NCBI GenBank assembly: GCA_963805975.1 | Contig: CAWDVR010000002.1 | Location: forward strand, 776,543 to 840,542 | From: an uncultured Acidobacteriota bacterium | GTDB lineage: Bacteria > Acidobacteriota > Thermoanaerobaculia > Multivoradales > SZUA-115 | Reading direction: 5' to 3' | Length of the DNA: 64,000 bases | In this document: piece after piece, positions 3,498 through 60,191 of the stretch | Position numbering within the stretch: position 1 is the stretch's first letter | Layout: the number at the start of each line of letters is the position of its first letter | The notes under the pieces: model-generated | Database searches by the model: none | Told to the model about the DNA's origin: nothing | The model's input: only the letters and a program-made list of their open reading frames with translations | Translations under genes and position numbers: made by a program

Positions 3498-4856
<1,359 letters not shown>

Positions 4857-11132: not shown

Positions 11133-12460
11133 TCCTCGCCCGTGGCTCCCCCATCGAGCGGCACCAGCAGCCCTTCGAGTCGCGCCGCGGCCTCGTGCAG
11201 TCGGCCGAGCGCCGCCAGGTGGTCGGCCTCGGCCTGAAACCACGTGCGCTGGGCCATCAACACTTGCGGATACGCGGCCATCATCGCCTGGTAACGCTCG
11301 AGATAGGCGCGGTATGCCTGCTCGGCCCGCGGCAGGATCCCTTCCCGGTAGACCGAGACCATTCGGTGAGCCGAGCTGTACTCGGCCCAGACGTCGGCGA
11401 AGCGCCTCTCGAGCCCTCCCTCGAGCACCGTGACCTCGGCCCTGGCGCGGGCGGCTGCCGCCTCCGCCTCGGCGATCGAGCCCTGGCCGCGGTCGAAGAG
11501 CGGTAAGGGCACGCCGATCTCGAAGAACCCTTCCCAGCCCACGCGAGGCCCCTCGCGGACCACCCTCTCCCGCCCCTGGAGCGCGCCCGCGGTGATCTCC
11601 AGGTTGGGCACCGCCCGCGCTCGCACCGCCGCCAAGTCTGCCTCGGCCACGGCCAGCCGAGCCAGGGCGCCGGCACGCTCGGGACTGTCTCGGAGCACGC
11701 GCGCGCGTACCGTGGCCTCGTCGAGCCCCGGGAGCGGCGCTAGGTCCTCGGACACGCGGGCGATCTGTCGCCGAGGCTCGCCGGCGGCAGCGGCCAGGCT
11801 CGCCAGGGCGGCCGTCAGCTCGGTGCGGGTAGTCTCCTCTGCCAGGGCCACGAGCTCGGCCTCGATCTCGGCGGCGGTAAGGTCCGACTCGTCCGCGACA
11901 CCGGTGTTATAGAGCTGCCAGGCGATCTCGACCGCCTCGTCGGCGAGCCGCGAGAGCCGCGTCCGCGCGGCGAGCAGGCGCTGTGCCGTGGCTGCTCGGG
12001 CATACCCGACCCGTACCGCCGTCAGGGCCGCGAGCCTCGTCCTCTCGGCCTGGGCCTCGAGCTCGACCACGCGCGCCTCGGCGGCCTTGCGACCCTTGGC
12101 GAGCTTTCCCCCGAGAACGAGCTCCTGCTCGACGAAGAAGCCGTAGCGCGCCGTGTCTTCACGACCGGATTCGAGCGAGATGTCCTCACCCGCGACGCCC
12201 AGAGTCGGATTGGGCCATAGGCCGGCCTGCAACCGGGCCCCCCGACCGCCGCGCTCGGCTGCGGCAGCGGCCGCCAGCGCGGGATGGTTGTCGAGCACCA
12301 GCGATTCGAGCTCGGCGAGCGTGGTCACGGGTCCGGCCGGGGCCTCCACCGGCGCCGCCCGGGGTGCCGGGTGATGGTGCTCGTGCTGCGCCGTGGCCGT
12401 CTCTGTCGCGAAGGCCGCGATGCAGAGGACGGCCGCGGTGGTCCGCCCCCACCTGTTCAC
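11129..12460 (-). CDS. TolC-like outer membrane efflux protein (OEP family) with His-rich N-terminus
   Basis: Real reading frame is the C-terminal 443 aa of the track ORF 11129..13549: signal peptide (M)[24 protein letters not shown], then HEHHHP, then long coiled-coil/OEP-like repeats. GTG start at 12460 overlaps the multicopper-oxidase stop (GTGA). Confidence 0.75.
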
Positions 12461-13764
12461 CGGCCACCGCCGTGCGAATGGCCTTCGTGCCCGCTCGCCG
12501 GCGGCGGCTCCACCGCCTCCGCCTTGAGGGCCAGGATGCGGTCGTACATCTCCGGCTCGAGCACCCGCACCAGGGTCATCATGCCCATCATGGCGCCCGT
12601 CCAGGTCGGCCTCAGGCCCAACGTCTCGGGCTTCTCGACCGCCTTGTCCATCGCCATGAACATGTCCTGCGGGTAGCCGGGCACGGTGCGCGCGTTCGGT
12701 GCGGGCGGGTGGAAAGACATCGCGTGCTCGGCGCCCGGCTCGGTGAGCGGTCCGACCATCGTGGTCATGTGGTTCATCATGTGGTGCGGCAGGTGGCAGT
12801 GGAGCATCCAGTCGCCGGCGTGCCTGGCCTCGAACTCCACGTCCCGCGCCTGCGCCACCCCCACGATCTCGGTGTTGCCCGGCTTCCACGCCGAGCGCGG
12901 GATGCGCCCGCCCTCCGTCCCCGTCACCCACCAGGTGTTGCCGTGGAGGTGGATGGGGTGGTGGTCCATGCCGAGGTTGATCATCCGGATCCGTACCCGC
13001 TCGCCCTTCTTGACCAGCATCGGTGTGGTCGCGGGCCCGGACTTGCCGTTGAAGGTCAGCCAGTTGAACTCCATGGCCAGGGTGTTGGGCGTCTGGTTGT
13101 TGGGCAGGATCGCCCACTCCTGGAGAGCGATGCCGAAGTCGCGCTGGCAGAGCGGCGCATGAGGCCTGGCGGGATGGATGATGAAGAAGCCTAAGGCACC
13201 CATCATCTCCTGCATCGGAAAATGGGAGTGGTAGAAGAAGGTGCCGTTCTGCCGCACCGTGAACTCGTACACGTAGCGGCCGCCGGGGGCGATGGGGTCG
13301 ACCCCCAGGCCCGGCACGCCGTCCTGCAGCATCGAGACCTCGAGGCCGTGCCAGTGGACGGCGGTCTCTTCCGGCAGGTGGTTGTCGACCACGAAGCGCA
13401 GGCGGTCGCCCTCCACCACTTCGATCGTCGGCCCCGGCACCGAGCCGTTGTAGCCCCAGAGGTTGAACGGCTGGCGCCAGGGCAGAAACCGCTGCTTCAC
13501 CACCTCGCAGCGGAGGTGAAACTCCTTGGCGCCGTCCACCCACCGCCACGGCAGCTTGGCCACGTCCGGCGTCTCGACCGGCACGTAACCGAGCTTGCTC
13601 GCGTCGGCGGCTTTGGGTGGCGGCGGATCAGAGGGTGCGGGGTGGTGGCCCTCGTGCTGCGGCTCCGCCTGCGCGAGGCCGCGGACGGTCGCCAGCCCGG
13701 CCGCAGCCAGCGCGCCGCCACGCAGGAAGTCGCGGCGGTTACTCTCTCGCCGGTTACTGGCCAC
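12457..13764 (-). CDS. Multicopper oxidase (CopA/CueO-like) with Tat signal and Met/His-rich segments
   Basis: Tat motif SNRRDFLRGGALAAAGLA. Copper ligand motifs HWHG, HSHF, HPIHLHG, HCHLPHHMMNHM. Met-rich stretches (MFMAMDK, MMGMM). C-terminal GHEGHSHGGG. Start tentatively GTG at 13764; the ATG at 13848 would overlap the upstream gene by about 95 nt. Confidence 0.85.
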   Translation of the reverse strand: MASNRRESNRRDFLRGGALAAAGLATVRGLAQAEPQHEGHHPAPSDPPPPKAADASKLGYVPVETPDVAKLPWRWVDGAKEFHLRCEVVKQRFLPWRQPFNLWGYNGSVPGPTIEVVEGDRLRFVVDNHLPEETAVHWHGLEVSMLQDGVPGLGVDPIAPGGRYVYEFTVRQNGTFFYHSHFPMQEMMGALGFFIIHPARPHAPLCQRDFGIALQEWAILPNNQTPNTLAMEFNWLTFNGKSGPATTPMLVKKGERVRIRMINLGMDHHPIHLHGNTWWVTGTEGGRIPRSAWKPGNTEIVGVAQARDVEFEARHAGDWMLHCHLPHHMMNHMTTMVGPLTEPGAEHAMSFHPPAPNARTVPGYPQDMFMAMDKAVEKPETLGLRPTWTGAMMGMMTLVRVLEPEMYDRILALKAEAVEPPPASGHEGHSHGGGR

Positions 13765-14161
13765 CCTTGCCGCCGGAGAGCGCCGCCGCGTACTCGTCGA
13801 AGGTCTTCTGGCTCTCGAAGTAGAAGACCGTGCCGTCCTCGAGCGCACCGATCACCGCCATGGCCTTGTCGACCGGCTTGCCGGTCACCGGATCGACGGC
13901 GCTACGGCTCGCCGCGTCCTTGGCCAGGCGCTCTTTGCACATCTCGCAGCAGCCGTAGTAGGTCTTGTGGTCGAACTCGACCGGGATCTGGTCCTTGCTG
14001 AACACCGCGTTGTTGACCATGCAGACCTTCTTGGCCTCGACGCGGGTGAGCTTGCCCTGCGCCGGCTGGGAGGCGGTGGCAGTGTCGGAAGCCGAGGCGG
14101 TCGTCGCCGCGAGCAGGCAGAAGACGAGCGAGGCTGCGAACAGAATGCGATGAGTCTTCAT
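13754..14161 (-). CDS. Periplasmic tandem YHS/TRASH-like domain protein (putative copper-binding)
   Basis: ATG at 14161 with AAGGAG SD. Signal peptide MKTHRILFAASLVFCLLAATTASA. First repeat KKVCMVNNAVF...KTYYGCCEMCKERL resembles the YHS pattern. Second repeat DPVTGKPVDK...GTVFYFESQKTFDEY is a Cys-less YHS-like copy. Confidence 0.75.
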   Translation of the reverse strand: MKTHRILFAASLVFCLLAATTASASDTATASQPAQGKLTRVEAKKVCMVNNAVFSKDQIPVEFDHKTYYGCCEMCKERLAKDAASRSAVDPVTGKPVDKAMAVIGALEDGTVFYFESQKTFDEYAAALSGGKGGQ

Positions 14162-14301: not shown

Positions 14302-14703
14302 CTAGATCAGGAAACTCGAGTGGAGGGTATAGAGGCCGTCGTCGGGCGGTGGAGCCGGATCGCTGAGCAGATCCGCCTGGGGCAGCGGCCTCGAGGCCGG
14401 CAACGCCAGGCTCACGGCGCACGAAACCAGGGTTGGTAGCGGAAGCGGGGGCGCGAAGGCCGGCGTGGTCGCGACCGGCTCGGCCAGCGAGCCGCAGCAG
14501 CCGTCCACCGGGCCCGCCTGCGAGGTCGAGCCGCAGTCGTCCGCACTCGCTTCGCAGCAATCGTGCCCGCTGCAGCAATCCTCGGCCGGGGTAGGCATGC
14601 CGCAACTCACGCCGTGGCAGACGGGCGCCGCAGCCGACAGGACCCAGACCGCTGCGAGCAGCAGGAAAACCGAGGCGCGGACCCGGGGGCGAGAGGCCGT
14701 CAC
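14302..14703 (-). CDS. Hypothetical Cys-rich secreted/membrane-anchored protein at the head of the copper cluster (start uncertain: GTG 14703 or TTG 14769)
   Basis: Most protein-like frame in this interval. Signal-peptide-like (M)TASRPRVRASVFLLLAAVWVLSAAAP, then VCHGVSCGMPTPAEDCCSGHDCCEASADDCGS...DGCCGS, then a weakly hydrophobic C-terminal segment. GC3-rich. No clear SD. Confidence 0.4.
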   Translation of the reverse strand: MTASRPRVRASVFLLLAAVWVLSAAAPVCHGVSCGMPTPAEDCCSGHDCCEASADDCGSTSQAGPVDGCCGSLAEPVATTPAFAPPLPLPTLVSCAVSLALPASRPLPQADLLSDPAPPPDDGLYTLHSSFLI

Positions 14704-14784
14704 GCAGGGCAGTATACGCCTAGTCGCCGAGATGCAGTCGGCCGCAGATCCGTTCAGAGTCCGGTTCAATCGGCCGAAACGGCC

Positions 14785-14820: not shown

Positions 14821-15087
14821 ATGAAAACCGTCGGGGTCGCAGCTTTAAAGGCCAGACTGAGCGAGCACCTGCGCGAGGTCCAGCAAGGGGAGATCGTGAC
14901 CGTTGTAGACCGCAAGACGCCGGTGGCACGGCTGGTGCCGTACGAGCGAGAGCTGCCGACAGGGCTCAAGGTACGGATGCCCCTGCCGGGCAGTTTGCGG
15001 CCGGGCCAAGTACCGCTGCCGGCGCCGGTCGACCTCCCCTTCGACGTGGTCGAGCTCCTGCTCGAGGACCGCCGGAACGGACGTTGA
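14821..15087 (+). CDS. Type II antitoxin (Phd/YefM-like fold) partnered with the VapC toxin
   Basis: MKTVGVAALKARLSEHLREVQQGEIVTVVDRKTPVARLVPYE matches the Phd/YefM N-terminal pattern. The stop overlaps the toxin start (ATGA). Confidence 0.8.
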   Translation: MKTVGVAALKARLSEHLREVQQGEIVTVVDRKTPVARLVPYERELPTGLKVRMPLPGSLRPGQVPLPAPVDLPFDVVELLLEDRRNGR

Positions 15088-15500
15088 TCGTCTACCTCGA
15101 CTCTTCCGTGGTGCTGCGCCGGCTGCTGGGCCAGCCTGGAGCCCTAGACTCCTGGGAAGCCATCGAGCGAGGCGTGGGGAGCGAGCTGGTGGAAGTGGAG
15201 TGCCTTCGCACCCTGGATCGGTTGTGGCTCTCAGGCTCCCTGATCAAAGAGACTCTGGTTGAGCTCCGCGAGGCCGTCTTTCGACTGACTGCCACCCTAG
15301 AGGTGGTGTCAGTCTCGCGACCGATCCTCAGCCGCGCAGCGCAGCCGATGCCGACCGCGTTGGCTACCCTGGACGCGGTCCATCTCGCGACCGCTCTCGC
15401 CTGGCAGGAGAACCTCGAGACCCAGCTCCTGATGGCGACCCACGACCAGGCGCTCGCCGCTGCCAGTCGCGCTTTTGGCTTGCGCGTGATCGGAGCCTGA
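15084..15500 (+). CDS. vapC: PIN-domain ribonuclease toxin VapC
   Basis: MIVYLDSSVVLRRL...TLDAVHLATALAWQ...LLMATHD contains the conserved PIN acidic residues. Four-nucleotide overlap with the antitoxin. Confidence 0.85.
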   Translation: MIVYLDSSVVLRRLLGQPGALDSWEAIERGVGSELVEVECLRTLDRLWLSGSLIKETLVELREAVFRLTATLEVVSVSRPILSRAAQPMPTALATLDAVHLATALAWQENLETQLLMATHDQALAAASRAFGLRVIGA

Positions 15501-15553: not shown

Positions 15554-17383
15554 TCACCAGCCGCACACCCGTCCTCTGTTCTGCTCGTCGAGCCAGGTCT
15601 TGAGCGGCGCGAAGTAATCGAGGATCGCCGTGGCGTCCATCTGCCGCTCGCCGGAGAGCGCTTCGAGGGCCTCCGGCCAGGGCCGCGAGCTGCCCATGGC
15701 GAGCATCTTCTCGAGCTTCTCGCCGGCCGCTTTGTTGCCGTAGATCGAGCCGCGATGGAGCGGCCCCTGGCAGCCGGCCGTCGCGCAGAGCGCGCGGTGG
15801 AACTGGAACTGGAGGATGTCGGCGAGGAAGTAGCGCGTGTACGGCACGTTGCCCGGCACATGGAACTTGGAGCCGGGGTCGAAGTCCGCTTCGCTCCTCG
15901 CCACCGGCGGCTCGATGCCCTGGTACTTGCGCACCAGCTCCCACCACGAGCGGTTGTAGTCGGCGGGCTTGATCTCGCCCGAGAACACCTTCCAGCGCCA
16001 CTGGTCGATGAGCAGCCCGAAGGGCAGGAAGGCCACCTTGTCGAGCGCGCGCTGCATCAGGAGGCCGAGGTCCTTCGACGGATCGGGCTCGTTCGGGATC
16101 AGGCCGATGTCCTTGAGGTACTTGGGGGTCACCGACAGCGCGACGGTGTCGCCCACGGCCTCGTGGAAGCCGTCGTTGGCGCTGTCGCGATAGAGGTGCG
16201 GCTGGTGCTTGTAGGCGCGCTGGTAGAAGTTGTGCCCCAGCTCGTGATGGATGGTCGAGAAGTCCTCCTCGTCGATGCCGATGCACATCTTGATGCGCAG
16301 GTCGTCCTCGGCGTCGATGTCCCAGGCGCTCGCGTGGCAGATCACCTCGCGATCCGGCGGGCGCACGAACATCGAGCGTTCCCAGAAGGTCTGCGGCAGG
16401 GGATCGAAGCCCAGCGAGGTGAAGAAGCGCTCGCCGGAGCGCACCATCTCCTTCTCGTCGTACTTGGCGGCCCTGAGCGCCGCCGTCAGGTCGAAGCCGG
16501 GGTCGGCGTCGGCGGGCCCCACCAGCGAGTAGATGCCCTGCCAGTCCTGGGCCCACATGTTGCCCAGGAGGTGGGCGGGGATCGGCCGGTCTGGCGGCAC
16601 CAGCTTGGTGCCGTAGTGCTCGCCGAGCTTGGCCCGCACGTGGCAATGGAGAGCGTCGTAGAGCGGCTTGACCTGGCCCCACAGCCGGTCGAGCTCCGCC
16701 CCGAAGTCGTCCGGCGGCATGTCGTAGGCCGAGCGCCACAGGGCGCCGACGTCCGGGTAGCCCAGCTCGCGGGCGCCTTGGTTGGAGATCTGGACCAGGC
16801 GTTCGAACTCGGGCCGCATGGGCGGCGACACCGTGCGCCAGCCCACCCAGATGTCCTGGAGCTCGGCAGGGTCGCGGCCCTCCCACATCATGCGCTCCAT
16901 GACGTCGAGCGTCAGGCACTCGCCGTTCGGCTTGCAGTACTTGCCACTCCCGAAGCGCGAGTTGAGGGAGGCGGCGAGACGCGCCAGCTCGGAGCCCAGG
17001 GCCGGGTCGGAAGGCGCCGGCAGGACGAGCCCGCGCTTCAGGATCTCGAGCTTGCGCCGCACGTCGTAGGGCAGCTCGAGCCCGTTGAAGCGCGCCGCCT
17101 GCTTGGCGATCTCGACGCCCGCCGCGGTCACGCGCTCGCTGGCGAGGGCGCCCAGGATCTCGGTGTCGTGGGTGATGTGCGTCTCCTGCACCCAGGCGGC
17201 GCGCTGCGCCTCCTCCGCGAGGCCGGCCAGCCGCTTCTCCGCCGCCTCGGCGAAGGCCTGGGCCTCCTGGGCGGTGGGCGCCGGGGCGGCGCCCGCCTTC
17301 ACCTTGTCTGCACCGAGAGCGGCCAACGCCGGCACCAGCGTCAGGCAGGCCGAGAGCACCAAGAGAATCTGGAATCGGGTCAT
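15554..17383 (-). CDS. M2-family zinc peptidyl-dipeptidase (angiotensin-converting-enzyme-like), secreted
   Basis: HEXXH zinc motif HHELGHNFYQ plus downstream EAVGDTVALS. Signal peptide. Length and motif order match bacterial ACE homologues. Confidence 0.85.
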   Translation of the reverse strand: MTRFQILLVLSACLTLVPALAALGADKVKAGAAPAPTAQEAQAFAEAAEKRLAGLAEEAQRAAWVQETHITHDTEILGALASERVTAAGVEIAKQAARFNGLELPYDVRRKLEILKRGLVLPAPSDPALGSELARLAASLNSRFGSGKYCKPNGECLTLDVMERMMWEGRDPAELQDIWVGWRTVSPPMRPEFERLVQISNQGARELGYPDVGALWRSAYDMPPDDFGAELDRLWGQVKPLYDALHCHVRAKLGEHYGTKLVPPDRPIPAHLLGNMWAQDWQGIYSLVGPADADPGFDLTAALRAAKYDEKEMVRSGERFFTSLGFDPLPQTFWERSMFVRPPDREVICHASAWDIDAEDDLRIKMCIGIDEEDFSTIHHELGHNFYQRAYKHQPHLYRDSANDGFHEAVGDTVALSVTPKYLKDIGLIPNEPDPSKDLGLLMQRALDKVAFLPFGLLIDQWRWKVFSGEIKPADYNRSWWELVRKYQGIEPPVARSEADFDPGSKFHVPGNVPYTRYFLADILQFQFHRALCATAGCQGPLHRGSIYGNKAAGEKLEKMLAMGSSRPWPEALEALSGERQMDATAILDYFAPLKTWLDEQNRGRVCGW

Positions 17384-56865: not shown

Positions 56866-57996
56866 TCACTCCCGCCACTCCACCGCCGGCTCTTCCTCGA
56901 GCCGCACGCTCCAGACGGCACGATACAGGGCCGCCGGGGTCAGAGCGACGACGATTTCCTGGCGGACTTCGTCAGCGGCGGGCAGGCCGGCCGGCGTGGC
57001 CCAGGAGCGGCGAGGGGCGAGGAGGGCCGAGAGGGCGACGGGCTGCTCCGCGGCTTGCCGGCGCAGCTCGATGAAGACCAGGGCCGGGCTCGGCGCGACC
57101 CAGCGGTCCGCCAGCCGCCGGAAAGCCGCCCACAAGCCCATCTCCGGCACCTCGAGACGGCCATCGCCGAGATCGGCGAAACCCTCGACCTCGGTGGGCG
57201 CGGAGGGCAGGGCGACCTCGAGGCGGGCCGGGAAGGGGTCGAGCACCAGCCGCGAAAGCTCGTCGATCGACATCTCCTCACCGCTCGGCACCTGGAGCAC
57301 GTCCCACACCTGGAGCATGGCGTCTCCCAGCCGGTCGAGCTCCTCCTCTTCGGTGGCGTTGAGGGCCGGCAGGCTCCGCTTCTCCTCTTCGCTCAGCAGA
57401 TCCTCGTAGATCTTCCCGAGGCAGGCGCGGTCGCGCTCGGGATGCTCGTCGAGGTAGGCGTAGAGGGCCGCGGCCTCGCGCAGGTAGACGGCGAGGCTCT
57501 CCGACCACCGGCCCAACGCCTCGTCCACCAGCCGCCGCTCGCGCCGCCCCGCACGGCTGGAGGAGCCGGGCGCGAGGGTTAGCTCCGCCAGGCCCTGCTC
57601 GGCGTCGATGCGGTAGCTGGCGGAAACGTCGGTGGAGCCGAAAAACCTCTGGAGGGCCTCCGGCTCGGTCACCATCGCCGCCCGGCGCACCGAACGGAGC
57701 CCGCCGAGGCGCTTCTCCCACCCGAAGCGCTCGGCCGCCGGCTGGAACGCGGCGAAGCGGGCAGACCAGGGGTCCGTGCCCTCGAGGAGAGCCCCTTCGG
57801 CCTCCGAGAGCCGCCGCTTCACCACCGCGTTGGTCTCGGCCTCGACCGCGGCGAGCTCCACCTCCGCCGTGAGGCGGAGGAAGCCGTTGGGTGCGAAGTC
57901 CAGGTAGAGGGTCTCGCGGATCGCCGGCTCGAAGCAGGAGGCGAGGAGCAGGGCCGAGGCGAGCGGGAGGAGGGCGCGGCGAGCGGATGTCAGCAT
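56866..57996 (-). CDS. Hypothetical lipoprotein
   Basis: Start at ATG 57996. Lipobox-type signal MLTSARRALLPLASALLLASC. Otherwise no recognisable domain. Confidence 0.55.
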   Translation of the reverse strand: MLTSARRALLPLASALLLASCFEPAIRETLYLDFAPNGFLRLTAEVELAAVEAETNAVVKRRLSEAEGALLEGTDPWSARFAAFQPAAERFGWEKRLGGLRSVRRAAMVTEPEALQRFFGSTDVSASYRIDAEQGLAELTLAPGSSSRAGRRERRLVDEALGRWSESLAVYLREAAALYAYLDEHPERDRACLGKIYEDLLSEEEKRSLPALNATEEEELDRLGDAMLQVWDVLQVPSGEEMSIDELSRLVLDPFPARLEVALPSAPTEVEGFADLGDGRLEVPEMGLWAAFRRLADRWVAPSPALVFIELRRQAAEQPVALSALLAPRRSWATPAGLPAADEVRQEIVVALTPAALYRAVWSVRLEEEPAVEWRE

Positions 57997-58053
57997 TCTC
58001 GGATGATACGGCTGGCGGGCGGGCGCCGCGCCAGCCGTGGCCAACCGCTCAGC

Positions 58054-58371
58054 TCACTGCATCGCGCCGCAGTAACCACCGTCGTCCAGGGAGCCCCAAC
58101 AGGCGTCACAACCGTCGAAACAGCAGCCAAGGTCACCGTCGTAGTAGTAGCAAACGCACACGTTGCAGTTGCACCCGCCATAGCAGCCACCGGCTGACTG
58201 CGTCGCGAAGTTGAACTGCTGCTGCGCGCCAGGAGCGCTGGCGCTCCTGCCCGCACGCGACATGCTGATCTTCCCCGCCTGGCTCGCGGCATCGACGGCC
58301 GCCACGCCCAGGAACACCGCCAATACGAACGCCGACACCACTACCAACCAAGCCCGATTACGACGCATCAT
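58054..58371 (-). CDS. Secreted cysteine-rich mini-protein / peptide precursor (12 Cys in the C-terminal 43 aa)
   Basis: ATGATG start with AAGGAG SD 8 nt upstream. Sec-type signal peptide MMRRNRAWLVVVSAFVLAVFLGVAAVDAASQA. Mature tail ...GGCYGGCNCNVCVCYYYDGDLGCCFDGCDACWGSLDDGGYCGAMQ, verified codon by codon. Confidence 0.65.
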   Translation of the reverse strand: MMRRNRAWLVVVSAFVLAVFLGVAAVDAASQAGKISMSRAGRSASAPGAQQQFNFATQSAGGCYGGCNCNVCVCYYYDGDLGCCFDGCDACWGSLDDGGYCGAMQ

Positions 58372-58445
58372 TTCGGACTCCTTTTCTGCCTTAACAGGCA
58401 TTAGGTTGGCAGGAGCATAGCTCTATTATCCTTGAAGCTCAATAG

Positions 58446-59855
58446 TCAAGGGTCGGCTCGTGGTGCCGAAACTCGGGCCAGGTCACCGCGGATGTCCCGC
58501 GCCAGCCGCTCGGCGGCGGGAGGATCTTCGTTGGCCAGCACGATCACGGTCCAGCCGGACTTCCAGTCGCTTTCCAGCGCGGCGTTGAGGCCAGGCGCTC
58601 CCCCGGCAACACCGAGCCCGCCGCGGGTACGAAACGGCTCCACCACGCCCAGCTTCCCGGCCTCGAGCGCACGGGCGAGGCGCCGCAGGTCCTGCGCCGT
58701 GGAGTAGCCGCCGCCGGCCGAGGAGCCGCGGCCGGGCAGCGACAGCGCGTTGTCGCGGCGTGGGGCACGAGGCTCCTCCGGGCGTCTTTCGTTCAGGCGC
58801 TCGTCGAGCCGGGTGTAGCCGCGGGCTCGGTTCGGGACCACCTCGTCGGAGGCGAAGTGGCCGGTGCCGGTCATCCCGGCCGGCCGGTAGATGTGCTCTC
58901 GGACGTAGTCGAAGTAGCTCTGGCCGGAAAGCCGCTCGATCACGAGCCCCAGCACCACGAACCCGGCGTTCGAGTAGCGGCGGTCGCTCCCCGGCTCGAA
59001 AGCCAGCGGCTGGTCGGCGAAGAGCTTCAGGTAGTCGGAGAGCTGGCGGATCTGGTGGCGGGGAGTGGCGTCGAAGCGGGGGCCGAAGAAGTCCCCCATG
59101 CCGGAGGTGTGGTCGAGCAGCCGCGCGATCGTCACCCGTCGCGCCACCTCCGGGTTGGGGTAGTCCGGCCAGTGGTGGGAGAGCGCGTCGTCGAGCGACA
59201 GCTTGCCCGCGGCGGCGAGCTGGCGGATCGCGATCTCGGTGAGCAGCTTGTTGATCGAGCCCAGGTTGAACCGGGTGTCGACGCGGTTGGGCACCTCGAG
59301 CGCACGGTCCGCGAAGCCCACCGCCTTCTCCACGAGAACCGTGTCGCCCTCTGCCACCAGCACCACGCCCGAGAACAGGTCGTCTTTGGCCAGCGCATCG
59401 ACCCGGGCGCGGATGGCCGCGAGCGCCTGCTCGCGGGTCAGCGGTTCGGTCGCAACCACCTCCGGCGGAGACTGGTCCGCCTCGACCCGTGTTCCCAGCA
59501 CCCCGAAGGGAGGGTTCGGTTCGAGGTCGAGGTCGAACGTCATCCACAGCGGCTCGTCTTGCGACTGGAGGACCACCCGCGCCCCGCGCTCACCCAGCGG
59601 CTCGACTCTCACCAGGCTCGCCTTGCCCAGGTCGGAAGCGATGCGCGCGAAAGTCTTCGCTCGCTCTGCTGCCGGCCTCTCGGCCAGCGCCGAGGCGGCG
59701 TAGTGCTCGGTGAAGAACCGCTCTGCGGTAGCCGGCTGCACCCCGGCCACGAAGAGGTCCGCGAGAGCCCGGCCGTGCCGCAGGGCCGCCTCGGAAGCGG
59801 TTCCGGCCGCACCGCTCGCCGTGGCGAGGCCGGCCATCGCCAGCACGGCGAGCAT
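58446..59855 (-). CDS. Secreted serine hydrolase of the beta-lactamase/transpeptidase fold (class C / EstB-like) with N-terminal extra domain
   Basis: Start at MLAVLAMAGLATASGAAG (59855). SxxK motif NLGSINKLLT. YSN-like motif RYSNAGFVVLG. Confidence 0.82.
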   Translation of the reverse strand: MLAVLAMAGLATASGAAGTASEAALRHGRALADLFVAGVQPATAERFFTEHYAASALAERPAAERAKTFARIASDLGKASLVRVEPLGERGARVVLQSQDEPLWMTFDLDLEPNPPFGVLGTRVEADQSPPEVVATEPLTREQALAAIRARVDALAKDDLFSGVVLVAEGDTVLVEKAVGFADRALEVPNRVDTRFNLGSINKLLTEIAIRQLAAAGKLSLDDALSHHWPDYPNPEVARRVTIARLLDHTSGMGDFFGPRFDATPRHQIRQLSDYLKLFADQPLAFEPGSDRRYSNAGFVVLGLVIERLSGQSYFDYVREHIYRPAGMTGTGHFASDEVVPNRARGYTRLDERLNERRPEEPRAPRRDNALSLPGRGSSAGGGYSTAQDLRRLARALEAGKLGVVEPFRTRGGLGVAGGAPGLNAALESDWKSGWTVIVLANEDPPAAERLARDIRGDLARVSAPRADP

Positions 59856-60191
59856 CAAGATCCTGCGTTTGATCAGCACTTTGTTTGCCTTTCCCCGGCT
59901 CCCGTGGGTGGGGCCGGATCGCGGAGGCGGGTTAGCAAGGTAGCTGCCAAGGTTGGCGAGCCTCGGCAACACGTTGGCCACGCCAACGGCCGGGCATGAC
60001 TCTCCTCAATTCGGGAGGCGGTTCCTCAAAGAAGGAGCCTGCGCTCCTCGTCCGCTGTCGCACCTCCGTCACAGGTCTGCCGCGTAGACGCGGCCGGGCC
60101 AGCCTAGCCTCTGCCCGATCCCGCTGCTCCTTCGAGCGGCAGTCAACGCCGTTCAATTTCGGAACCCGCGATCCAAATAGAGGAGATCTGT

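Follow-up and report, generated by a model that had tools for sequence, protein, structure and literature searches.

A small exported ten-cysteine protein of an undescribed family from Thermoanaerobaculia, with a predicted disulfide-stapled fold

The DNA analysed here (the window) is a stretch of 64,000 nucleotides from contig CAWDVR010000002.1 of an uncultured Acidobacteriota bacterium of the class Thermoanaerobaculia (GenBank assembly GCA_963805975.1, positions 776,543 to 840,542). On its minus strand, between positions 58054 and 58371, lies a small gene whose 105-residue translation (MMRRNRAWLVVVSAFVLAVFLGVAAVDAASQAGKISMSRAGRSASAPGAQQQFNFATQSAGGCYGGCNCNVCVCYYYDGDLGCCFDGCDACWGSLDDGGYCGAMQ, with the C-terminal end ...GYCGAMQ) begins with what looks like a signal peptide and ends in a domain with ten cysteines. 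This product belongs to an undescribed and taxonomically narrow protein family, found mainly in the Thermoanaerobaculia (Acidobacteriota), with a new cysteine framework.

The gene and its locus

The gene and the parts of its precursor are the following.

58054–58371, minus strand: coding sequence of the 105-residue precursor, stop codon included (list of open reading frames and translation)
58378–58383, minus strand: Shine-Dalgarno sequence AAGGAG, 6 nucleotides 5' of the first ATG (read from the sequence)
58288–58371, minus strand: signal peptide, residues 1–28, with MMRRNR, a 20-residue hydrophobic core and a VDA/A cleavage site (direct reading of the sequence)
58186–58287, minus strand: N-terminal half of the mature protein, residues 29–62, with Arg39, Phe53 and predicted strands beta1 and beta2 (conservation and AlphaFold2)
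58057–58185, minus strand: Cys-rich domain, residues 63–105, with 10 Cys, a predicted beta3-beta4 hairpin, a helix and a tail with Cys101 (conservation of the framework, model confidence, substitution rates)

The small open reading frame (ORF) is a real gene. The tandem ATG start (ATGATG) and the strong Shine-Dalgarno (SD) sequence that a first-pass annotation of this DNA had described are both readily found, and the orthologues retain a purine-rich SD, which is identical in L001 (from a Logan assembly) and AGGAAG in L004 (from a metagenome-assembled genome, MAG, of the Thermoanaerobaculia). The upstream in-frame ATG at 58401 was rejected as the start, since it has no SD, the true SD would fall inside the ORF, and the public calls correspond to the 105-residue form; the public annotation calls an identical 105-residue product (P0001). 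The G+C content at third codon positions (GC3) is 0.78 in the frame of the gene, 0.53–0.60 in four overlapping frames and 0.73 in the fifth. When the Cys domain is compared with that of two orthologues, the proportions of nonsynonymous (pN) and synonymous (pS) differences are 0.18–0.28 and 0.70–0.76 respectively, and the protein sequence is therefore under purifying selection.

A chance ORF in DNA of 70% G+C, without any gene, might be suspected on the grounds that long chance ORFs are frequent in the window and that the small gene, with a G+C content of about 0.64 and the GC3 given above, falls below its neighbours (G+C 0.70–0.77, GC3 0.87–0.95). This lower composition could result from the codon demands of Cys, Tyr, Asn and Asp, from the expression level or from allele exchange. 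Against a chance ORF stand about 40 relatives with common invariant residues, the excess of pS over pN, the conserved SD and leader, and the synteny; these conservation data rule it out, and we consider its probability negligible. A lack of conservation in relatives, combined with signs that the overlapping plus-strand frames are the translated ones, had been named beforehand as the observation that would speak against the gene; about 40 distinct relatives keep the framework.

By inspection, the N-terminus looks like a Sec signal processed by signal peptidase I, with a basic n-region, a hydrophobic core and the V-D-A/A site, in agreement with the classical Sec signal peptide previously proposed. 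Export by the twin-arginine translocation (Tat) pathway was rejected: no Tat consensus follows the RRNR segment, and the family does not conserve the twin Arg. Every family member has a signal peptide or a lipoprotein signal at its N-terminus. Sec would export the precursor and signal peptidase I would cleave after Ala28; the mature protein so released would have about 77 residues and be acidic (pI approximately 4). The final location is probably outside the cytoplasm, in the cell envelope or at the exterior of the cell. The mature chain contains 10 cysteines (residues 63, 67, 69, 72, 74, 83, 84, 88, 91 and 101), and not the 12 that had been counted at first.

The features surrounding the gene are given below.

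58372–58427, minus strand: conserved 5' untranslated leader, near-identical in the window, L001 and L004
58010–58036, minus strand: G+C-rich stem-loop directly 3' of the stop codon (predicted fold, z = -2.4)
58446–59981, minus strand: beta-lactamase-fold protein (bla), PF00144, E 6e-54 (Pfam)
56866–57996, minus strand: lipoprotein, MLTSARRALLPLASALLLASC..., with the lipobox LLLASC (sequence)

The PF00144 match and the lipobox bear out the flanking beta-lactamase-fold and lipoprotein genes on the same strand that had been read from the sequence. The alaS gene lies beyond the lipoprotein gene, and a porin and a transporter gene are also near in the window. The order bla-fold gene, small gene, lipoprotein gene is found again in two orthologues, L001/L002 and L004, the latter also having alaS and the porin gene in common with the window; in addition, on the P0003 contig the family gene is again just upstream of alaS. 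The bla and lipoprotein neighbours are common to the closest relatives only. The neighbours of L003 are polyphosphate kinase, phosphoglycerate mutase and NIF3, and those of other loci include DUF885, MFS transporters, acyl-CoA dehydrogenase, cytochrome c, Uma2 and HlyD/ABC genes, as well as histidine kinases, LysR regulators, carbamoyltransferase, MglB-like proteins and mannosyltransferase. The family gene is single-copy in every locus, without tandem arrays, and the small gene is a stand-alone chromosomal gene. Possible maturation genes were sought among the window genes at about 40.7–62.6 kb, within 10 kb on either side of L003 and among 20 neighbours of 12 other loci; across these loci no recurrent MNIO/DUF692, DUF2063, radical-SAM, peptidase-ABC exporter or small immunity gene was found.

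Unlike the leader, the last part of the upstream gene and the spacer downstream have diverged between the window, L001 and L004. In the predicted fold of the leader, CCAACC pairs with codons 8–10 (GGUUGG) and the SD and AUG are buried in a hairpin (z = -2.2), suggesting that the leader may be a translational control element; no match to it was found in Rfam. At the 3' side, hairpins of other sequence occupy the same place as the stem-loop in L001 (approximately 1085–1125, z = -5.4) and in L004 (approximately 3640–3685, where z = -0.6 is no better than shuffled sequences). Lacking a clear U tract and not called in a scan for consensus terminators, the stem-loop at 58010–58036 may act either in termination or in stabilising the mRNA.

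Family, cysteine framework and predicted fold

An exhaustive HMMER search of 1.84 billion cluster-representative proteins retrieved 21 representatives of the family at E<1e-3. They share a layout of signal peptide, middle segment of about 30–60 residues and C-terminal Cys-rich domain, and they are 90–122 residues long except for P0018 (212 residues), which has an N-terminal extension of about 110 residues. Additional members were collected with a degenerate DNA pattern derived from the invariant positions; this pattern covers the x5 spacing class alone, so that members with x7/x8 spacing, the class of the window protein included, are under-sampled. Among the GTDB species genomes 8 true matches were obtained, of which six are from Thermoanaerobaculia (one labelled to family level only, Thermoanaerobaculaceae), one labelled 'Acidobacteriota' and one from Archangium (Myxococcota), and 17 true matches came from the JGI metagenomes. 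Three further GTDB matches to the pattern lie in poly-Cys frames and are due to chance. In the whole collection, L006, L007, L011, L016, L018–L021 and others were discarded as such chance matches, in poly-Cys frames of simple GC- or TG-rich repeats. Two word-indexed searches had a more limited reach: the one with the full protein alignment returned only 6 members, the candidates being dominated by words from the signal peptide, and the one with the Cys domain alone gave no match, this profile being too short for a database of 5.8 billion sequences.

A total of 41 distinct Cys domains was assembled, and the spacing of their cysteines, the conservation of which had been proposed as a check, follows the framework C1-x(1,2)-G-x-C2-x-C3-x2-C4-x-C5-x(5-8)-C6C7-x2-G-C8-x2-C9-W-x(4-10)-C10. 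In the alignment of 40 sequences, two Gly, seven Cys and the Trp, ten positions in all, do not vary; the invariance of Cys1 is imposed by the extraction pattern. Upstream of the Cys domain, two residues, Arg39 as part of an h-x-h-x-R motif and Phe53, do not vary among 21–22 members and are more than 90% conserved in 39. In P0004, P0006, P0008, P0015, P0016, P0019 and P0020 an 11th Cys is present 2–8 residues past the invariant Arg. The family can thus be defined, for working purposes, by a signal or lipoprotein signal, then h-x-h-x-R...F, then C-x(1,2)-G-x-C-x-[C/x]-x2-C-x-C-x(5-8)-CC-x2-GC-x2-CW, with an optional C-terminal Cys paired with the third Cys. The window protein shows every one of these elements.

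All the annotated members are labelled 'hypothetical protein'. Scans of the window protein and of 21–22 members against Pfam, NCBIfam and PADLOC gave isolated sub-threshold matches only, and a profile search of the PDB sequences gave nothing at E<=10. The earlier opinion that the protein could be placed in no known family was therefore upheld in these databases and against the PDB folds. The family had no match among the viral contigs of IMG/VR or the plasmids of PLSDB, and an origin from a mobile element was rejected for this reason.

AlphaFold2 gave a confident fold for both the precursor and the mature chain (mean predicted local distance difference test score, pLDDT, of 83.5 and 80.6, respectively), with the same beta1-beta2-beta3-beta4-helix layout, and so answered the call for a structure prediction made in the first-pass annotation. 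In precursor numbering, the predicted elements are beta1 (34–38), beta2 (51–56), beta3 (62–67), beta4 (71–76) and the helix (81–98); pLDDT is approximately 70–87 for beta1 and beta2 and 88–93 for the Cys domain. Four invariant cysteines are placed on the beta3-beta4 hairpin and four on the helix, including C84-x3-C88, with Cys3 in the turn of the hairpin and Cys10 in the tail. The whole mature chain would thus form one small domain, in which two strands carrying the invariant Arg and Phe precede the Cys-rich hairpin and the Cys-rich helix. The segment before the Cys domain had been taken for a Gly/Ser/Ala-rich linker, a description that does not fit a region with these two invariant residues and two predicted strands of the fold. 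The predicted fold resembles the cystine-stabilised alpha/beta motif in reverse order. In a Foldseek search against the PDB the best matches were to profilins (E 0.24–0.4), and no defensin, toxin, knottin or inhibitor was among the matches listed.

Cysteine chemistry, divergence and possible function

The cysteine content of the Cys domain is always even, each of the 41 domains having either 8 or 10 cysteines. The third and the tenth (Cys69 and Cys101 in the window protein) are both present in 32 domains and both absent in 9, with no domain having a single one of them (Fisher 2.9e-9, a value that overstates the evidence because a neighbour-joining tree of the mature sequences places the 8-Cys forms in two groups, so that they represent few independent events). 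The 8-Cys forms are found behind at least three unrelated types of signal: window-like, P0010-like and lipoprotein. Five of them have a lipobox Cys, L008 from Archangium and four from soil contigs (L015, L029, L038 and L042), and this lipoprotein subgroup has a longer, Asp/Ser-rich middle segment. The pairwise presence and absence is what a disulfide would predict and points to a Cys3-Cys10 bond, which would join the turn of the hairpin to the C-terminal tail. In the simplest scheme the remaining eight cysteines, of which the hairpin and the helix carry four each, would staple the helix to the sheet, so that five disulfides very probably lock the fold; the full map is an inference. No modifying enzyme would take part.

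The first-pass annotation had left the choice between a disulfide-rich and a metal-binding peptide, and it is the former that the joint behaviour of Cys3 and Cys10 and the confident folded model favour. Some Thermoanaerobaculia are anaerobes, so that oxidation in the periplasm is not guaranteed. A periplasmic metal-binding protein, metallothionein-like or a Cu/Zn buffer, could hold metal ions with ten reduced thiols; its 10 Cys in 43 residues, its C-x-C, CC and C-x2-C motifs and its many Asp and Glu would suit such a role. The strict pairwise loss of Cys3 and Cys10 with the other eight kept is, however, the behaviour of a disulfide and unlike that of a shared metal cluster, and the model has regular strands and a helix with high pLDDT, together with invariant Gly, Trp, Arg and Phe. 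Metallothioneins are not known to have such a regular strand and helix fold. Moreover, no metallothionein or copper-protein match was found in Pfam or NCBIfam, and no metal-resistance gene adjoins the small gene in any locus, which makes metal binding improbable.

Enzymatic modification of the cysteines appears highly improbable. The small gene would then encode the precursor of a ribosomally synthesised and post-translationally modified peptide (RiPP), either an MNIO substrate of the bufferin/oxazolin type or a radical-SAM thioether peptide, and it does share with the bufferin and oxazolin precursors the unusual arrangement of a Sec signal before a Cys-containing core (PMC12452194, PMC11626156). 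These precursors are nevertheless defined by adjoining MNIO and DUF2063 genes, and no MNIO, DUF2063 or radical-SAM gene was found among the tested window genes within about 6–18 kb, within 10 kb in L003 or among the immediate neighbours in the 12 other loci. The absence of any DUF2282, BUF or SCIFF family match, and the prediction that the entire mature chain would fold, argue in the same direction.

The mature part is the fastest-evolving sequence of the locus, with a fixed Cys framework. Between the window and L001 (P0002), identity is 93% in the signal peptide and 42% in the mature part, compared with 89% for the lipoprotein and 81% for the bla-fold protein; between the window and L004 the corresponding values are 75%, 51%, 72% and 70%, and AlaRS is 87% identical. 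The synonymous rate (dS) in the signal region, 0.32–0.41, equals the background of bla and alaS (0.41–0.62), so that an additional nucleotide constraint on the signal-peptide codons was rejected and it is the mature part that is unusual. The nonsynonymous rate (dN) of the mature region is 0.40–0.53, against 0.08–0.19 for bla and alaS, and its pS of 0.65–0.67 (0.57–0.76 in sub-regions) is saturated. The same contrast, with the signal better conserved than the mature part, is seen in most of the other closely related family pairs. Conotoxins and other venom peptides have been described as following this pattern of a conserved signal before a fast-diverging mature part (e.g., PMC4494067).

Taken together, these data lead us to propose that the product of the small gene is an unmodified target-binding protein, stapled by disulfides and located in the cell envelope or outside the cell, with a probable role in conflict between organisms; to this explanation as a whole we assign a probability of about 0.5. 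Its molecular description, taken alone, is highly probable, and the conflict-related inhibitor or decoy function, taken alone and drawn by analogy, is tentative. Outside the cytoplasm, the mature protein would be a highly stable module for binding, either soluble or, in the 8-Cys relatives, lipoprotein-anchored, and could serve in the periplasm or at the surface as an inhibitor of, or decoy for, incoming and typically cationic lytic enzymes or peptides. This role is suggested because the family is uniformly acidic (net charge of the Cys domain -2 to -8 in 41/41, mature pI 4.1–6.1 in all 21 members tested), occurs in soluble and lipoprotein forms, has no export or immunity genes nearby and evolves fast.

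Several observations weigh against this explanation. The inhibitor or decoy role is proposed only by analogy with PliC/MliC-type inhibitors, and reasoning alone leads to four of the five disulfide assignments. The co-losses of Cys3 and Cys10 may have occurred independently as few as 1–3 times. The odd 11th Cys of 7 of the 21 members lies outside the five-disulfide scheme and could be a free thiol or form an intermolecular disulfide. Finally, the synonymous sites of the mature part are saturated and dN/dS in its N-terminal half is approximately 0.7–0.8 and not above 1; positive selection is therefore not demonstrated, and the divergence could equally be produced by relaxed constraint.

The fixed Cys framework under a fast-changing surface could instead reflect an arms race with the targets of a secreted antimicrobial mini-protein, defensin-like or a Sec-dependent bacteriocin, that leaves the cell and harms competitors. 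Several features fit such a product: the signal peptide, a compact alpha/beta design stapled by cysteines (C-x3-C on the predicted helix, C-x-C on a predicted strand) and the contrast between a conserved signal and a fast-diverging mature part, as in venom peptides (PMC4494067). Bacterial cis-defensins with signal peptides and long N-terminal tails, some of them acidic, are also known (PMC11561630). On the other hand, all members are acidic, five relatives are lipoprotein-anchored, the gene is single-copy without tandem arrays, the hosts are diderm, in which export by Sec goes no further than the periplasm, and the loci examined have no consistently neighbouring secretion system, immunity gene or ABC exporter. 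An antimicrobial function is thus unlikely. For the bacteriocin-like option of the first-pass annotation the evidence is divided, the toxin-like fast evolution of the mature part speaking for it and the acidity, the anchored relatives and the lack of nearby immunity and export genes against it.

If the divergence instead reflects relaxed constraint on a tiny scaffold that its cysteines hold together, the protein could have an endogenous role in the envelope, for example as a stable periplasmic partner or regulator of one of the host's own envelope enzymes. The N-terminal dN/dS, which never exceeds 1, agrees with this, as do the chromosomal, single-copy position amid housekeeping genes, the absence of the family from the IMG/VR viral contigs and PLSDB plasmids, and the stable order of bla-fold gene, small gene, lipoprotein gene and alaS in the closest clade. 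No neighbour is conserved family-wide, however, and the patchy and rare occurrence of the family would be odd for a core envelope function, so that an endogenous role appears quite unlikely.

With regard to its origin, the disulfide-stapled binding protein proposed here may be an independent bacterial invention, a cystine-stabilised alpha/beta fold in 'reverse', cross-linked by five disulfides within about 75 residues and without a solved structural relative, used as a rapidly evolving weapon or shield by the Thermoanaerobaculia and some Myxococcota; this extended proposal is doubtful. Well documented from animals, plants and fungi, disulfide-rich mini-proteins are rare and poorly catalogued in bacteria, and the host class is known almost solely from metagenomes. 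What is new is the Cys framework and a predicted fold without a solved neighbour, in proteins hitherto named only 'hypothetical protein'. If the five-disulfide fold is true, it would offer a very stable new scaffold for peptide engineering and a data point on the origin of cystine-stapled alpha/beta architectures; if the conflict role is true, it would point the way to a factor of antagonism or protection among soil Acidobacteriota. The family is small, settles no long-standing question and brings no major surprise; it should mainly concern students of disulfide-rich mini-proteins and of Acidobacteriota.

Elsewhere in the window, on the minus strand at 14302–14769, a 155-residue ORF (GC3 0.83) whose N-terminal segment is hydrophobic contains 12 Cys plus His (…CHGVSCGMPTPAEDCCSGHDCCEASADDCGS…GCCGS…), has no Pfam match and lies just upstream, on the same strand, of a multicopper oxidase gene with a Tat signal (12457–13848); it may encode a copper-related Cys/His-rich envelope protein. 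Close to it are a type II toxin-antitoxin pair on the plus strand (14821–15500), in which a Phd/YefM antitoxin gene (PF02604) overlaps that of a PIN-domain toxin (PF01850), and, on the minus strand at 15554–17383, a full-length Peptidase_M2 (angiotensin-converting-enzyme-like, E 1e-220) with a signal peptide.

Comparison with known systems

Small exported proteins that protect the envelope by inhibiting foreign hydrolases include PliC/MliC, Ivy and ecotin, which are not Cys-rich, and one such inhibitor family exists in both soluble periplasmic and lipoprotein-anchored forms. The family described here resembles them in the small size of its exported proteins and in the occurrence of soluble and lipoprotein-anchored forms within one family; in contrast, it is Cys-rich and has no sequence or fold similarity to them (Pfam negative). 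Bacterial metallothioneins of the SmtA/BmtA type are cytosolic and have no signal peptide, unlike the members of the new family, all of which have one, and no Pfam or NCBIfam match to a hidden Markov model of this type was found. For SCIFF, ranthipeptides and sactipeptides, no radical-SAM neighbour was present in the loci examined and no NCBIfam match was obtained. Sec-dependent class II bacteriocins differ in being cationic and in having an adjacent immunity gene; here the mature pI is 4.1–6.1, and no small neighbour gene is conserved in the new family.

Bufferins and oxazolins are periplasmic products of Gram-negative bacteria (PMC11626156, PMC12452194), and the window protein has, as they do, a Sec signal followed by a Cys-containing core. 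It differs from them in that no MNIO (DUF692) or DUF2063 genes are nearby in the loci tested and in that the cysteines behave as disulfide partners; furthermore, no DUF2282 or BUF_6/12Cys signature was found in 21–22 members with Pfam and NCBIfam. The precursors of the conotoxin type (PMC4494067) have in common with the new family a conserved signal, a fixed Cys framework and a fast-diverging mature region, but they are animal venom peptides of large multigene families, whereas the gene described here is bacterial and single-copy.

Bacterial cis-defensins with signal peptides and N-terminal tails are known from the Myxococcota and from a single MAG of the Acidobacteria, and some are acidic (PMC11561630). 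In the new family the order of the defensin motifs is inverted, C-x-C (C72-x-C74 of the window protein, predicted strand 71–76) preceding C-x3-C (C84-x3-C88, predicted helix 81–98) in 41/41 domains; the family also has 10 Cys and two extra strands in its predicted fold, and no solved defensin or scorpion-toxin-like fold of the PDB was among the Foldseek matches listed. The likeness to cis-defensins such as xanthusin-1 and actifensin (PMC11561630) is nevertheless extensive: both are small and secreted, with a signal peptide and often an N-terminal tail, both have (by prediction in the new family) a helix stapled to a beta-hairpin by several disulfides, and both combine C-x3-C and C-x-C motifs with a variable sequence between the cysteines and with hosts among the Myxococcota and Acidobacteria. 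Although it stands outside their membership, it is these cystine-stabilised alpha/beta proteins that the new family most resembles in the way it would work.

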